A stretch of DNA of 64,000 bases from Gemmatimonadales bacterium. GTDB taxonomy: Bacteria; Gemmatimonadota; Gemmatimonadetes; Gemmatimonadales; GWC2-71-9. A program made the position numbers and the translations under genes. Shown here one piece after another: positions 28,371-53,187 of the stretch. The notes below the pieces were generated by a model that worked only from the letters and a program-made list of their open reading frames with translations, did not search any database and was not told the origin of the DNA. The stretch lies in assembly GCA_035280265.1 (NCBI GenBank), contig DATEGE010000147.1, positions 7,135-71,134 of the forward strand, given 5' to 3'. How positions within the stretch are numbered: position 1 is the first letter of the stretch; every line of letters begins with the position of its first letter.

Positions 28371-28820
28371 ATGACGGTTGCACGGTGGGCGTTGCGCGCG
28401 TCGCTGGTGCTCGTGGTTGCCGGTTGCGCCAGCGGCGGCGACCCGGCGGCCGAGATCGCCGCGATGCTGCGGCGCAGCGCGACCGACTGGAATCGCGGCG
28501 ATCTCGCGGGCTTCATGGGCGATTACGCGCGCGATTCGCTCACCAGCTACGTCAACGCGGGGCACGTCCAGTACGGCTGGCAGAAGCTGTACGATCGCTA
28601 CCAGGCCGTGTACTTCGCCCCCGGCAAGGCGCGCGACTCGCTCGCCTTCGAGGAAGTGCAGGTGCGGCCGCTCGGCCCTGACCTGGCGCTCTGCACGGCT
28701 CGCTTCAAGCTGCGGCGTCGCGACGCGGTGACGGCGAGCGGACCATTCACGTTGCTGCTGCAGAAGCGGAACGGGCGCTGGCAGATCCTGCACGACCACA
28801 CCTCGAGCGACCCGAAGTGA
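28371..28820 (+). CDS. SnoaL-like/DUF4440 (NTF2 fold) lipoprotein
   Basis: It has the lipobox LVVAGC. The pattern WNRGDLAGFMGDY...GRWQILHDHTS is typical of DUF4440. Confidence 0.6.
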   Translation: MTVARWALRASLVLVVAGCASGGDPAAEIAAMLRRSATDWNRGDLAGFMGDYARDSLTSYVNAGHVQYGWQKLYDRYQAVYFAPGKARDSLAFEEVQVRPLGPDLALCTARFKLRRRDAVTASGPFTLLLQKRNGRWQILHDHTSSDPK

Positions 28821-30187
28821 AGTCAGTCGGCTGTCCGCTGATGTTCTTGACCGCCGCCGTTGTCTTGATGGCGGTCTCGTGCGGTTCATCGGGTGATGGA
28901 GTCATCGCCCTCGAGGGAGCCACATTGATCGACGGCACGGGGGGCGAGCCCGTGAAGGACGCCCTCGTGCTGATCCAGAACGGACACATCGAGGCCGTGG
29001 CCCGTGTCAACGACGTGCCGGTGCCTCGGGGCGCGCAGGTCGTGAACCTGATCGGGAAGACGATCATCCCGGGGCTGATCGACGCGCACGCGCATGTCGA
29101 GCGGTGGGCCGCGGAACGCTACCTCGCGTGGGGCGTCACGACGGTTCGCGACCTCGGGGCCGCGAGCACGGACTCGTTGATCGCGTTGAAGAACGCGTTC
29201 GACCTCGGCTCGGTGCGGGGGCCGCGCATGTTCACCTCGGGGGCGATGATCGACGGCGCGCCACCCACCTACCCCACGGCCACGGCGGTGCGGACGGCCG
29301 TCGAGGTCCGCAAGGCGGTGGACCAGCGCGCGGTGGCGGGGGCAGACTACATCAAGATCTACACCAAGTTCACTCCCGACCTCCTCAAGCCCCTGCTGGA
29401 CGAGGCGACGACGCTGCGATTTCCCATCGCGGCGCACCTCGGCAAGATGGATGCGCTTACCGCCGCGCGCGGGGGGGTCGCCTCACTCGAGCACATGGCG
29501 GGCGTCGTGCAGACGGCCAGCCGTAATCCCGCGTACGCGAGCGGCCACGACCAATTCCTGCGTGGCTGGACCGCCGAAGAGAAGGGCTGGGCCACGCTCG
29601 ATTCCGCCGCGGTCGCGCAGACGGCGCGGGCGCTGGCGGCCACGCGAGTCGCGATCGTACCCACCCTGGTCCTCCACGAGATGCTGTCCCGGCTCGACAA
29701 CCCCACGCTCATGACGCGCCCCGGCATGGAGGACGTGCCGGCGAGCGCGGCGAGCGTGCGCGACGTCCCTGGGCTGCTGCGCCGCACCGGGTGGCGCGGC
29801 GCCGATCTCCAGGCGTTCCGACGGTCACGCGCGCGCCAGGATCAATTCGTGCGCGAGTTCAAGCGCGCCGGCGGGCTGATCGCCGCCGGCTCGGACGCCG
29901 CCAACCAGCTGCTCGTGCCGGGCCTGTCACTGCACGAGGAGCTGAGCCTGCTCGTCGCCGCCGGGCTCACGCCGATCGAGGCGGTGACCACCGCGACCCG
30001 CAAAGCGGCCCAGCTGTTGCGCGCCGACTCGCTCGGCCGCGTGGTGAAGGGCGCCGTCGCCGACCTGGTCGTCCTCGACGCCAACCCGGCGCGGGACATC
30101 GGCGCCACACGGCGTATCAGGTGGGTGATGATCCGTGGACAGATCATCCATCCCGATTCGTTGAGGAGAACATGGGCAAACAGATGA
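28817..30187 (+). CDS. amidohydrolase family protein (lipoprotein)
   Basis: It has a signal/lipobox LMAVSCG, the metal motif GLIDAHAHV, and a C-terminal GSDA...HEEL region. Its start overlaps the previous stop. Confidence 0.75.
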   Translation: MKSVGCPLMFLTAAVVLMAVSCGSSGDGVIALEGATLIDGTGGEPVKDALVLIQNGHIEAVARVNDVPVPRGAQVVNLIGKTIIPGLIDAHAHVERWAAERYLAWGVTTVRDLGAASTDSLIALKNAFDLGSVRGPRMFTSGAMIDGAPPTYPTATAVRTAVEVRKAVDQRAVAGADYIKIYTKFTPDLLKPLLDEATTLRFPIAAHLGKMDALTAARGGVASLEHMAGVVQTASRNPAYASGHDQFLRGWTAEEKGWATLDSAAVAQTARALAATRVAIVPTLVLHEMLSRLDNPTLMTRPGMEDVPASAASVRDVPGLLRRTGWRGADLQAFRRSRARQDQFVREFKRAGGLIAAGSDAANQLLVPGLSLHEELSLLVAAGLTPIEAVTTATRKAAQLLRADSLGRVVKGAVADLVVLDANPARDIGATRRIRWVMIRGQIIHPDSLRRTWANR

Positions 30188-31884
30188 GAGCGGCGTTGCT
30201 CGCCGTGCTCGCGGCGGTGGGGTGCGGCGAACGTGAGGCCGGCCGCTCCGGCCCCCACGACGTGGTCCTCAGGAACGGCTGGATCGTGGATGGCAGCGGC
30301 AATCCGCGCTACCGCGGCGACGTCGCCATCCGCGACGACAAGATCGCCGCCGTGGGCTTCTTGAACGGCGGCGCGGCCCGTGAGACCGTCGACGTGAGCG
30401 GCCTGATCGTGGCCCCCGGGTTCATCGACATGATGGGCCAGTCCGAGATCAACGTGCTGATCGACAACCGCGTGCTCTCGAAGATCACCCAGGGCGTCAC
30501 CACCGAGGTCACCGGGGAGGGAGGCTCCGTCGCGCCGCTCACCGACCAGCTGGCCCGCGACGATTCGGACGCCATGAAGAAGTGGCACTATCGTGAGGAC
30601 TGGCGCGACCTGGACGGCTATTTCGCGCAGCTCGAGAAGCAGCGGTCCGCCCTCAACATCGCGACGTTCGTGGGAGCGACACAGGTGCGACTCGCGGTGA
30701 TCGGGAAGGACGACCGCCAGCCGACGGCCGCGGAGCTCACGCACATGACGGCGATCGTGGACTCCCTCATGGAGCAGGGGGCACTGGGGGTGTGGACCGC
30801 GCTCGAATATGCCCCCGCCAGCTATTCCAAGACCGAAGAGATCATCGCGCTCGCCAAAGCGGCGCGACGCCACGGCGGCATCTACGCGTCCCACATGCGG
30901 AACGAGGGAGCGCGCATCGACGACGCCCTGGACGAGGTATTCCGTATCGCGCGCGAGGCCGACATCCCCGCGGAGATCTCGCACCTGAAAGTCTCGGGCC
31001 GGCAGAGCTGGGGACGCATGTCCCGAGTGTTGACGCGCATCGACTCCGCGCGGGCCGCGGGGCTGGACGTGACGGCGGACCAGTACCCGTACGTCCGCGC
31101 CGCGACGGCCCTCGATGCCTCGATCCCCACCTGGGCGGAGAACGGCGGTTGGGACTCGCTGCTCGCCCGGCTCCGCAATCCCGCGACCCGCGCGCGGCTG
31201 CGCGAAGAGATGCTGCGTCCCCAGGGACCGGAGAGCTTCTATTATGAGGCGGGCGGCGGCGCCGGCGTGCTGATCACGGGCACGTTCCAGGATTCGCTGC
31301 GCTCCCTCCAGGGCAAAACCATCGCGCAGATCGCCGCGGCACGGCACAAGGACGAGGTCGAGACGCTGTTCGACGTCGTGCTGGCGGAAGGTGGACACCG
31401 CACCGACGCCGTGTATGCCGTGATGGACGAGTCCGACGTGCAGGCCGCGATGAAGACGTGGTGGGTGGCCGTGAACACCGACTTCGGGGGAGTGGCGCCG
31501 GATGGGCCGTTCGGCACTCAGTCCGCGCACCCGCGCGCCTACGGGACCTTTGCGAAAATCCTCGGTCACTACGCGCGCGACTCGAAGTTATTCCCGCTCG
31601 AGTTCGCGGTGCGCAAGATGACTGGGCTCGCCGCGCAGCGGGTGGGGCTGCACGACCGCGGGCTGCTGAAGCCGGGAATGGCGGCGGACATCACCGTGTT
31701 CGACGCCGCGACGGTGGCGGACAAGGCGACCTTCGAACAGCCGCATCAACCCTCCGTCGGGTTCGCGTACGTGTTCGTGAACGGGCAGAAGGTGCTGGAC
31801 CACGGCACGCTGACGGCGGCGCGCCCGGGCCGGGGACTGCGCGGAGCGGGGTACGTACCGCGGGGGGCGCGCGCCAGGCGGTGA
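30184..31884 (+). CDS. N-acyl-D-amino-acid deacylase (D-aminoacylase) family amidohydrolase, lipoprotein
   Basis: This is part of ORF 29791..31884. The start is ATG 30184 (ATGA overlap) or 30172. The signal is ALLAVLAAVGCG. Motifs are VVLRNGWIVDGSG, PGFID, IYASHMRNEG and ISHLKVSG. Confidence 0.75.
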   Translation: MRAALLAVLAAVGCGEREAGRSGPHDVVLRNGWIVDGSGNPRYRGDVAIRDDKIAAVGFLNGGAARETVDVSGLIVAPGFIDMMGQSEINVLIDNRVLSKITQGVTTEVTGEGGSVAPLTDQLARDDSDAMKKWHYREDWRDLDGYFAQLEKQRSALNIATFVGATQVRLAVIGKDDRQPTAAELTHMTAIVDSLMEQGALGVWTALEYAPASYSKTEEIIALAKAARRHGGIYASHMRNEGARIDDALDEVFRIAREADIPAEISHLKVSGRQSWGRMSRVLTRIDSARAAGLDVTADQYPYVRAATALDASIPTWAENGGWDSLLARLRNPATRARLREEMLRPQGPESFYYEAGGGAGVLITGTFQDSLRSLQGKTIAQIAAARHKDEVETLFDVVLAEGGHRTDAVYAVMDESDVQAAMKTWWVAVNTDFGGVAPDGPFGTQSAHPRAYGTFAKILGHYARDSKLFPLEFAVRKMTGLAAQRVGLHDRGLLKPGMAADITVFDAATVADKATFEQPHQPSVGFAYVFVNGQKVLDHGTLTAARPGRGLRGAGYVPRGARARR

Positions 31885-32264
31885 CCCTGACGCGGCTCGT
31901 GCTCGCGTGGTTGCCGGTCGCCGCGTGGTTCGTGATCGCGACCTACGGGACGGCGGTGCTCATCGCGCAGGTGTCGCGGCCGACCGATCAGCCCGGCGAT
32001 ATGACGAGCTTCCTGCTCGTACTGCTCAAGTGGCGGATCGTCGAGGCTGCTCTCCTCACGCTGTTCGCGTCGCTGTGGTTCGACTCGCTGGGCAGCCGCG
32101 GCTGGTGGCTGCTGTTCCTGCTGGTCGGCGCGCTGGTGACGATTCCGACCTGGCTACAGCCGGGGCCAGCGGTCCGTCCGCGACGTGTCGCCCTGTCCGG
32201 CGCCGCTGCCGACCTCGCGCGCTACGTCCTCGCCGGCGCCATTCTCGCCTGGAGACTCGGATAG
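31881..32264 (+). CDS. small hypothetical membrane protein (about 4 TM)
   Basis: A GTG start overlaps the upstream TGA (GTGA). Hydrophobic segments include LVLAWLPVAAWFVIATYGTAVLI and WWLLFLLVGALVTIPTWL. Confidence 0.5.
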   Translation: MTLTRLVLAWLPVAAWFVIATYGTAVLIAQVSRPTDQPGDMTSFLLVLLKWRIVEAALLTLFASLWFDSLGSRGWWLLFLLVGALVTIPTWLQPGPAVRPRRVALSGAAADLARYVLAGAILAWRLG

Positions 32265-32283: not shown

Positions 32284-33339
32284 ATGTCTACCACCTCTGT
32301 GGCCGCGATCCGGCTGACCCGCTATTCGCACGGCGCGGGCTGAGCCTGCAAACTCGGGAGCTCCGAGTTGGCGCAGGTCTTGCGCCACGTGCCAGTCGCG
32401 ACGGATCCTCGGATCCTCGTCGACGCCTCGAGCCGCGATGACGCCGCCGTTTTCCAGGTGGCTCCCGATCGCGCGATCGTGGCGACCGTGGATTTTTTCA
32501 CGCCCATCGTGGACGATCCGTACGACTTTGGGCGCATCGCCGCGACCAACGCCTTCTCGGACGTCTACGCGATGGGTGCGACGCCACTGCTGGCCCTGAA
32601 CCTCGTCGGCTGGCCGCGCGACACGCTGCCGTTCGAGCTCTTGGGCGAGGTGATTCGCGGCGGGGCCGACGTGGCCCGTGACGCGCGCGCCTTCGTGTTG
32701 GGCGGCCACTCCGTGGACGATCCCGAGCCGAAGTACGGGATGGTGGTGATCGGCGAGACTCACCCCGAGCGCATCGTGAAAAACGCCGGCGCGCGCCCGG
32801 GCGACGCCCTGGTCCTCACCAAGCCGCTGGGCACCGGGGTGCTCACCACCGCCCTGAAGCGCGACCTCGTCACGGAGTCCGATCTGGCGGAAGCGGTGAG
32901 GGCCATGACGACCCTCAACGCCGGGGCGGCGCGCGCGATGCTCGCGGTGGGCGTCCATGCGGCCACCGACGTCACCGGGTTCGGCTTGCTGGGCCACTTG
33001 CGCACCATGCTCGAAGCGAGCGGGGCGGCGGCGGAGGTTCGCGCGGCGGCGGTGCCCTTGTTACCCCACGCCCGGGAGCTGGCCGAGCGGGGCGCGGTCC
33101 CCGGCGGCACCGAGCGAAACGCCGAGAGCGTCGCCGACACGACCACGTTCGGCACCGCCGTGGACCTCACCACGCGCCTGCTGCTCGCCGACGCCCAGAC
33201 ATCGGGCGGCCTGCTGATCTCGGTCGAGTCGCAGCGGGCGCCGGCACTGGTGGCGGCGCTCGAGCGCGAGGCGACGCCCGCCCGAGCCGTGATCGGTCGG
33301 GTGGTCGAGGGACCGGCCGGTCGGATCAGGGTGGCGTGA
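32284..33339 (+). CDS. selD: selenide, water dikinase (selenophosphate synthetase) with in-frame UGA = selenocysteine at codon 20
   Basis: ATG 32284 gives MSTTSVAAIRLTRYSHGAG-TGA-ACKLGSSELAQVL..., continuous with ORF 32368..33339. It aligns with E. coli SelD IRLTQYSHGAGCGCK, where Cys17 is catalytic. Confidence 0.85.
32348..32372 (+). promoter_or_regulatory. putative SECIS-like hairpin downstream of the selD UGA
   Basis: AACTCGG-gagct-CCGAGTT (32351-69) has a possible lower extension (GC...GC). It begins 5-8 nt after UGA 32341-43. Confidence 0.5.
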
Positions 33340-52171: not shown

Positions 52172-53187
52172 AAGTCGTCGTCCTGTACGACCCCGGAGCC
52201 GAGGACTGGACGCCCGAAGATATCCGCGGCGTCATGAAGGCCGTCGACGAGATCGCCGCCATCTTCGCCGCCATGGGCCACGAGGTCCGCCGGGTCCCCG
52301 TCCGCCACGACATGCGCTGGTTCCAGACCGCGCGCCGCGCCGATCTCGTGTTCAACCTGTGCGAAGGCGTGCACGGCAGGAGTGAGTGGGAGGAGCACGT
52401 CGTGGGAACGCTCGAGTTCGCAGGCATTCCCGTCACGGGAGCGAGCCTCTGGACGCTGGCGGCGTGCCGTCGCAAGCCGATCGCCAACGCGCTGCTGCAG
52501 CAGGCCGGGCTGCCCATCCCGCGCTGGACCCTGGCGCAGGGAAGGATCGAGGACGACTTCCCGTTACCCGCCATCGTCAAGCCGGCCGCCGAGGACGCGA
52601 GCGCGGGCCTCGACCGCGGCTCCGTCGTGAGCGACCGCAAGGCGCTGCGCGCCCGCGTCGCGGCGATGACGGAGCAGTTCGACGAGGTCCTCGTCCAGGA
52701 GTACGTGGGCGGCCGCGAGTTCAACGTCGGCTTCGTGGGCGGCCGCGCGCTCCCCGTGGCGGAGATCGACTTCAGTCGCATGCCCGAGGGCGCGTGGCCG
52801 ATCCTGACGTACGCGGGCAAGTGGGAGATCGGCTCGCCCGACGACCTGGGCTCCGTGCCCCAATGCCCCGCCGCCATCCCGCAGAAGGTCGCCGACCGGC
52901 TCATCCGCCTCGCCGAGCTCGCGTGGCGGGTGATGCAGGGGAAGGGATACGCGCGCGTCGACCTGCGGGTGGACGACCAGGGCCGGCCGTGGATCCTCGA
53001 GGTCAACCCCAACCCCGACCTGAACGACGACGCCGGCTTGTCCCGCATGGCTCGAGCCGCGGGGTGGGACTACGCCGAGCTGGTGCGGCGGATCGCCGAG
53101 GTGGCGCTCCGCGAAGCGCAGGGCGCCAAGGCGGCGCGTGAGCTGCTCGCTCCGTCCCGTCGGCCGCGCGCAACGCGCACGGCTTGA
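52168..53187 (+). CDS. ATP-grasp ligase, D-alanine--D-alanine ligase-like (paralogue 2)
   Basis: The GTG start overlaps the upstream TGA (GTGA). The sequence begins VKVVVLYDPG. Motifs are DLVFNLCEGV, LPAIVKPAAEDASAGL, VLVQEYVGGREFNV and RVDLRVDDQGRPWILEVNPNPD. Confidence 0.8.
   Translation: MKVVVLYDPGAEDWTPEDIRGVMKAVDEIAAIFAAMGHEVRRVPVRHDMRWFQTARRADLVFNLCEGVHGRSEWEEHVVGTLEFAGIPVTGASLWTLAACRRKPIANALLQQAGLPIPRWTLAQGRIEDDFPLPAIVKPAAEDASAGLDRGSVVSDRKALRARVAAMTEQFDEVLVQEYVGGREFNVGFVGGRALPVAEIDFSRMPEGAWPILTYAGKWEIGSPDDLGSVPQCPAAIPQKVADRLIRLAELAWRVMQGKGYARVDLRVDDQGRPWILEVNPNPDLNDDAGLSRMARAAGWDYAELVRRIAEVALREAQGAKAARELLAPSRRPRATRTA

Follow-up and report, generated by a model that had tools for sequence, protein, structure and literature searches.

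Introduction

In Escherichia coli fdhF the SECIS is a minihelix lying 11 nt 3' of the UGA, in which U17 is bulged and the apical loop reads G22 G23 U24 C25. Among the selenide,water dikinases (SelD), the closest described systems are the selenocysteine (Sec)-containing enzymes of Haemophilus influenzae and Aquifex aeolicus. They belong to the TIGR00476 family and carry Sec where the E. coli enzyme has Cys17, within the N-terminal Gly-rich loop, followed by x-C/A-K; their UGA lies within the first ~20 codons and the SECIS sits in the coding sequence directly 3' of it. The structure of the A. aeolicus enzyme (PDB 2yye and 2zod) was reportedly solved as a Sec-to-Cys variant. FdhA and SelD are the two most widespread bacterial selenoproteins (PMC1794560), and SelD, which ranks second in distribution among the selenoprotein families of prokaryotes, is a common case of misannotation (PMC1794560, PMC13188914, PMC13326102). 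The authors of BSepDB likewise state that Sec-containing SelD is frequently misannotated in GenBank and RefSeq (PMC13326102). For the prediction of bacterial SECIS elements, the bSECISearch model places the loop 16-37 nt from the UGA, with an energy of <= -7.5 kcal/mol and a loop of the form N1-G-[G/U]-N-N2 (PMC13188914, Fig. 2 legend).

The Gemmatimonadota, an abundant soil phylum, are barely mentioned in the selenoprotein literature searched, in which no paper on their selenoproteins was found; this is a gap in coverage and not a sign of a new mechanism. The window considered here, a stretch of 64,000 nucleotides from an uncultured soil lineage of this phylum, very probably encodes at 32284-33339 a full-length SelD with a UGA-encoded Sec in its catalytic loop, for which the SelB-binding hairpin is most likely the one at 32371-32385. 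Like the enzymes of H. influenzae and A. aeolicus, it is a TIGR00476 member with the UGA early in the gene, and there is no difference in kind between them. It is, in short, a missed annotation of a known kind of selenoprotein, and not a discovery.

Identity and reading frame of selD

The features of the gene are as follows:

32284-33339, plus strand: selD coding sequence, 351 codons and the terminal TGA, with the TGA at 32341 predicted to be read as selenocysteine
32341-32343, plus strand: in-frame UGA, the predicted Sec codon, residue 20 (equivalent of E. coli Cys17), placed by alignment and conservation
32368-32370, plus strand: TTG start used in the mechanical ORF list, not the true start, 28 codons inside the conserved SelD N-terminus

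The mechanical list of open reading frames gives the gene as a 323-aa entry at 32368-33339, with TTG 32368 as its start. An initial annotation of this DNA had pointed to an ATG at 32284 in the same frame, correctly on both counts. Translation of the window from this ATG gives a frame of 351 codons with one internal TGA, at 32341-32343, which reads MSTTSVAAIRLTRYSHGAG-TGA-ACKLGSSELAQVL and runs through to the terminal TGA at 33337-33339.

With C substituted for U for the HMM searches, the protein matches NCBIfam TIGR00476 (selD) with 403 bits (cut-off 125) and NF002098 with 391.5 bits (cut-off 299). It also contains the AIR-synthase-related, PurM-like fold domains AIRS (PF00586, 89.7 bits) and AIRS_C (PF02769, 81 bits) of Pfam. 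In a phmmer search against the PDB, E. coli SelD (3u0o) matches residues 7-349 at E = 1e-83, and in this alignment U20 falls on Cys17, C22 on Cys19 and K23 on Lys20; the UGA therefore stands exactly at the catalytic Cys17, as had been proposed, and both Cys19 and Lys20 are kept. The product is predicted to catalyze the ATP-dependent synthesis of selenophosphate.

The 323-aa entry obtained by mechanical ORF calling speaks for a different reading, in which the UGA is a true stop (of a pseudogene, through a sequencing error, or upstream of a shorter protein made from TTG 32368) and no Sec is inserted. A product from this TTG, however, would be devoid of the catalytic Sec/Cys-x-Cys-Lys loop. Moreover, a six-frame search finds selD in a single copy in this genome, with no second gene to supply selenophosphate.

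Conservation of the UGA codon

A six-frame search of 41 genomes (40 relatives and the own genome) found SelD in 39. Within the genus, each full-length orthologue (22 genomes) contains one in-frame TGA and no more, and the position of the ATG start is kept in the congeners. TGA-type selD is also present in all of the sister family (f3) and in part of another family of the order (f2). The TGA codon occupies the identical position in 29/29 loci of relatives, within ...SHGAG-U-ACKLG..., so that the orthologues of close relatives keep both the UGA and the GAGU-x-CK segment. Across 71 SelD loci, this one codon is TGA in 45 and TGC or TGT in 26, the Sec/Cys pairing typical of a selenoprotein gene. 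A phylum-wide sample of 151 genomes, 120 of them with SelD, gave an in-frame TGA in 85/120 and no in-frame stop in 35/120; the no-stop selD genes that were fetched have TGC or TGT at the Sec codon in 20/20 cases. Five further no-stop matches in this sample are probably fusion proteins of ~800 residues, and one match is partial. Frames of ~780-810 aa that match SelD residues 18-345 with 39-41% identity and without a stop were seen in five genomes of the same class (G152, G090, G168, G107 and G170, family f7); they are probably members of the oxidoreductase/SelD-related fusion family TIGR04369 ('fusion_not_SelD') and not SelD.

Since the TGA is kept at the same codon across dozens of independently assembled genomes, a sequencing error for UGC or UGU, which the initial annotation had raised, is ruled out, and a pseudogene is excluded as well. 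The sequence on both sides of the codon is also informative. In the ten codons 5' of the TGA the amino acids are kept and the synonymous sites vary, which indicates that this stretch is translated, and the 19 codons 5' of the UGA are under protein-level purifying selection, against the reading of the UGA as a true stop. Over the 14 codons 3' of the TGA, on the other hand, synonymous positions are frozen among 31 genes of the genus and sister family, the freeze spanning +1 to +45 and pointing to constraint on the RNA. No synonymous change is found there in 8 of 12 (67%) amino-acid-conserved degenerate codons versus 1% of 163 elsewhere in the gene (p = 9e-5).

Selenocysteine machinery and other likely selenoprotein genes

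The assembly (3.0 Mb, 238 contigs, 94.6% complete) encodes the full Sec machinery that had been anticipated from selD: selA (520 bits, the gene being cut by a contig end), selB (301 bits, or 328 bits summed with a C-terminal stretch) and a tRNA-Sec of 94 nt with anticodon UCA and a long variable arm (80 bits against RF01852; ARAGORN predicts it too). All three are above the curated or gathering thresholds. The selD gene does not form an operon with selA or selB. A search for other UGA-containing genes, suggested by the initial annotation, brought up five further likely selenoprotein genes, among which the peroxiredoxin (Prx)-like and AhpD-like assignments stand at the level of motif and TGA only:

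Contig C79, TGA at L139:772: formate dehydrogenase alpha subunit (FdhA) with Tat signal, ..AIENQARI-U-HSSSVPG..; SECIS GUCCCC-GGUCU-GGGGAC, whose loop (+22-26) is in register with that of E. coli fdhF
Contig C65, minus strand: SelW/Rdx-like CxxU gene, IEYCVV-U-NYEPRAAGL; hairpin GCUGCC-GGUCU-GGCGGC with the loop at +25-29
Contig C31, minus strand: AhpD-like CxxU gene, with the loop GGUC at +21-24
Contig C143, 16668-16252, minus strand: Prx/BCP-like gene, TGA at the peroxidatic Cys; the hairpin is clear and its loop is of the CGUG type
Contig C189, 12297-12668, plus strand: Prx/BCP-like gene, TGA at the peroxidatic Cys; weaker CGUG-containing hairpin candidate

This selenoproteome is incomplete. 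The regex scan for CxxU, UxxC and Prx motifs with a GC3 filter was too noisy in a high-GC genome, so only matches with recognisable family motifs were retained. A scan for a TGA followed by a GGUNY-loop hairpin gave 45 matches, mostly in implausible frames, of which FdhA, SelD and the SelW-like gene alone look real. Two of these matches fall in the window, at 52667 and 61097 (C147:59801 and C147:68231), in implausible frames rich in arginine and serine, and are probably due to chance. The 2-selenouridine synthase gene selU/ybbB (TIGR03167) was not found in the 94.6%-complete assembly, and selenophosphate in this genome appears to serve Sec synthesis only.

The machinery, together with the other selenoprotein genes, also bears on the reading of the UGA as a true stop, which can be regarded as effectively refuted. 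With this, all the outcomes that the initial annotation had named as decisive (the presence of selA, selB and the tRNA in the genome, the UGA and its segment in close relatives, the soundness of the codon itself) fell in favor of a Sec-containing SelD. It could still be argued that read-through alone leaves the inserted amino acid unnamed, and that the UGA is reassigned throughout the genome, for example to Trp or Gly. Nothing specific favors this idea, and its probability is minute: selD itself terminates at a UGA (33337-33339), the ORFs of the window close normally under table 11, the internal UGA aligns with Cys in homologues and has Cys-codon sister genes, and the genome holds a dedicated tRNA-Sec together with SelA and SelB.

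Hairpins downstream of the UGA

In what follows, nucleotides are numbered with the U of the UGA as 1. Two adjacent hairpins can be drawn in the selD mRNA:

32351-32369, plus strand (11-29 in UGA numbering): proximal hairpin AACUCGG-GAGCU-CCGAGUU, the one described in the initial annotation; likely an accessory element or spacer
32371-32385, plus strand (31-45, loop 32376-32380 or +36-40): distal hairpin GCGCA-GGUCU-UGCGC, stem extendable to 32369-32387 (29-47); most likely the core of the SelB-binding SECIS

The TTG at 32368 lies at the junction between the two. When the 60 nt after the UGA are folded as a single sequence, the result (z = -0.71) is not distinguishable from shuffles; only the comparative data are decisive. 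Such data support both hairpins. Three sets were compared: the 31 genes of the genus and sister family, a multi-phylum set with 46 selD genes of Sec type (Gemmatimonadota, Chloroflexota, Actinomycetota, Marinimicrobia, Myxococcota and others) and 26 Cys-type genes, and, as the closest control, 20 Sec-type and 20 Cys-type genes of the own family.

The proximal hairpin starts 7 nt after the TGA, has its loop 14-15 nt from the UGA and folds alone at -8.6 kcal/mol. Its stem covaries in the genus and sister family, where 3/8 pairs have changed on both sides; pair 18/22 occurs in five types (C-G, G-U, A-U, G-C and U-G) and pair 16/24 as G-C, G-U and A-U. It is also enriched in Sec-type genes: the mean minimum free energy (MFE) of the segment is -8.2 in the 46 Sec-type versus -4.0 in the 26 Cys-type genes of the multi-phylum set (p = 3e-5), and -10.6 versus -6.5 in 20 Sec-type and 20 Cys-type genes of the own family (p = 8e-4). 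The proximal hairpin is a second structure under selection in the lineage. The codons of KLG..AEL are partly self-complementary, which may account for some of its pairing. The loop is not conserved; congeners have UCA, CCC, CCG or CAA..., and the G is often absent.

The distal hairpin follows the state of the codon more closely. In the 46 Sec-type genes its stem is 95.7% paired, with 3/5 pairs changed on both sides, while in the 26 Cys-type genes it is only 42% paired, which does not exceed shuffles. The stem variants include GCUCA/UGAGC, GCCCA/UGGGU and ACGCA/UGCGU, and some of the changes recode the amino acid (R to S or G). For the distal segment, Sec-type genes of the multi-phylum set average an MFE of -10.0 and Cys-type genes one of -3.1 (p = 2e-10); the means are -11.4 versus -3.8 in the 20 Sec-type and 20 Cys-type genes of the own family (p = 8e-8). 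Within this family, Cys-type genes that still encode LAQVLR have the distal stem broken by synonymous changes, and several of them have the proximal hairpin intact. As this comparison shows, the LAQVLR segment of the protein is kept in place by the RNA hairpin. In the Sec-type genes, G36 and G37 of the loop are >= 90% conserved and U38 is invariant. The GGUCU loop is also that of the fdhA SECIS of the same genome, and GGUC(U) loops recur in its fdhA, SelW-like and AhpD-like genes. Since the distal stem is invariant in the genus and sister family, its covariation support comes from the more distant phyla only.

Compared with the bSECISearch model, the distal hairpin (32369-32387, -11.0 kcal/mol) agrees on 4/4 criteria. 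The loop has 5 nt (3 nt if G36-U40 pair) and the stem 5-7 bp, the loop G-G-U-N-C/U fits, and the spacing of 32 nt is near the upper limit. The proximal hairpin, in contrast, fails on spacing (14-15 nt against a minimum of 16 nt) and lacks a conserved G in the loop. With the fdhF SECIS of E. coli the distal hairpin shares the GGUC(U) loop, an A-U closing pair and a G+C-rich stem, but it is without the bulged U, and its stem begins at a distance of 26 nt from the UGA, with a distinct 19-nt hairpin in between. Relative to the fdhA of its own genome (12-nt spacing, loop at +22-26), the selD loop at +36-40 is 14 nt farther from the UGA. Taken as a whole, these comparisons argue that the distal hairpin is probably the SelB-binding element.

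The initial annotation had placed the SECIS in the proximal hairpin. This hairpin is real, covaries and starts 7 nt after the TGA as described, but it is probably not the SelB-binding SECIS, given its spacing, the loop G that is not kept, and the distal hairpin that tracks Sec; applying the bacterial SECIS model, which had been recommended at the same time, favors the distal hairpin over it. That the proximal hairpin is the one bound by SelB, the distal one being accessory or conserved for another reason, is accordingly unlikely, though it has arguments on its side. The covariation and the enrichment in Sec-type genes are among them, and its stem, 7 nt after the UGA, comes nearer to the 11-15 nt of other genes. 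A Sec-type selD of family f2 also has a hairpin at the proximal register, with the loop CGGGU, as its sole candidate SECIS. Besides the short distance to the loop and the self-complementary codons, two observations weigh against it: several Sec-type lineages that retain the distal hairpin have a weak proximal one or none, and in several Cys-type relatives the proximal hairpin stands at full strength.

Family f2 (L050-L056, same order) deserves a separate description. Its Sec-type selD lacks the AQVLR hairpin and has only a proximal one, AUGGGUC-CGGGU-GACCUGU, which makes a proximal SECIS possible in this gene family. Its sister genera have TGC at the Sec codon, and the Cys-type gene L056 retains a remnant of the hairpin sequence.

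A third arrangement is one long bipartite stem-loop, in which an outer stem GCCUGC/GCAGGU (32344-32349 with 32373-32378; 4-9 with 33-38 in UGA numbering) encloses the proximal hairpin. Folding of 60-nt and 101-nt segments yields it as the structure of minimum energy (z = -3.2 for 101 nt), its energy of -19.5 kcal/mol differs little from the -20.6 of the tandem-hairpin fold, and 6/6 pairs of the outer stem are intact in the genus and sister family. The outer stem is, however, invariant in these close relatives, as is the distal stem, and this set cannot choose between the two. Across the 46 Sec-type genes of the multi-phylum set, pairing of the outer stem reaches only 82%; 22/46 genes are unpaired at 6/36 and 11/46 at 9/33. 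The frozen synonymous sites from +39 to +45 are unexplained by the long stem and accounted for by the distal hairpin, and the GGU motif would be buried in the stem. Because the outer stem does not hold up across these Sec-type genes, the long bipartite model was rejected as the SECIS; the chance that it is correct appears very slim.

With the distal hairpin as the probable SelB-binding element, the role of the proximal one can be considered. The distal stem lies a linear 26 nt from the UGA, whereas the distance elsewhere in the genome is 12-15 nt, on which basis the proximal hairpin may serve as a folded spacer or as a pause element. A broader proposal, offered tentatively and with less than even confidence, is that a two-hairpin SECIS device exists in selD, both in this lineage and in numerous other phyla; the GGU-loop hairpin bound by SelB would lie unusually far off, at 32 nt, and the proximal hairpin, selected separately, would as spacer or pause restore the effective distance. 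The SECIS would then have moved between adjacent hairpins in evolution, some lineages having only the proximal one with the loop CGGGU, most the distal one, and some both.

Genomic neighbourhood

The genes around selD are the following:

28817-30187 and 29791-31884: two amidohydrolase-family ORFs upstream of selD, overlapping as listed
31458-32264, plus strand: 268-aa ORF that ends 20 nt before the selD start, kept upstream of selD in the genus with 50-76% identity
33353-33589, plus strand: 78-aa ORF that starts 14 nt after the selD stop
Further downstream, after the 78-aa ORF: universal stress protein, RNase H, cupredoxin-domain protein, isocitrate/isopropylmalate dehydrogenase

The C-terminal part of the 268-aa ORF reads as hydrophobic. 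Searches with Pfam and NCBIfam returned no family for this ORF or for the 78-aa one. The latter directly follows selD in every congener and in the nearest public MAGs (L057 and L058), where its identity is 79-98%, in L062 (76%), and in more distant Gemmatimonadales (50-56%), including genomes with a Cys-type selD (L059 and L061); a link to selenium metabolism is possible. A scan of the whole window with Rfam at the gathering thresholds gave no matches and no tRNA, a result that is silent either way on the SECIS.

Proposed selenium-dependent synthesis of SelD

The standard bacterial pathway suggests how the gene would be expressed. SelA would convert Ser-tRNA-Sec into Sec-tRNA-Sec using selenophosphate. 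SelB, with GTP and Sec-tRNA-Sec, would then bind the SECIS hairpin just 3' in the selD mRNA, most likely the one at 32371-32385, with 32 nt between the UGA and its loop, and deliver Sec to the UGA at 32341 in the ribosomal A site. In the finished enzyme, Sec20 and Lys23, placed in a flexible N-terminal loop, would take part in the formation of selenophosphate. Given a single selD and no Cys-type copy, active SelD would need selenophosphate for its own synthesis; the enzyme would thus depend on its own product, in a positive feedback on selenium supply. The autoregulation by selenium put forward in the initial annotation is, with selD as the sole copy, a plausible expectation. It has been discussed before (PMC1794560).

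Significance

The existing knowledge of how selenoproteins work is unchanged by these findings; the conserved two-hairpin layout with its long UGA-to-loop distance is a mildly new point. For this gene, the correct annotation is a 351-residue selenoprotein and not a 323-residue fragment without the catalytic loop, and the genome should count as a Sec-decoding one that has six or more likely selenoprotein genes. LAQVLR provides a small, clean case of RNA structure constraining protein sequence. At the level of the phylum, most SelD-bearing genomes of the Gemmatimonadota sample (85/120) have the Sec-containing form, and the repeated switches from Sec to Cys inside one family make a handy natural series for SECIS decay.
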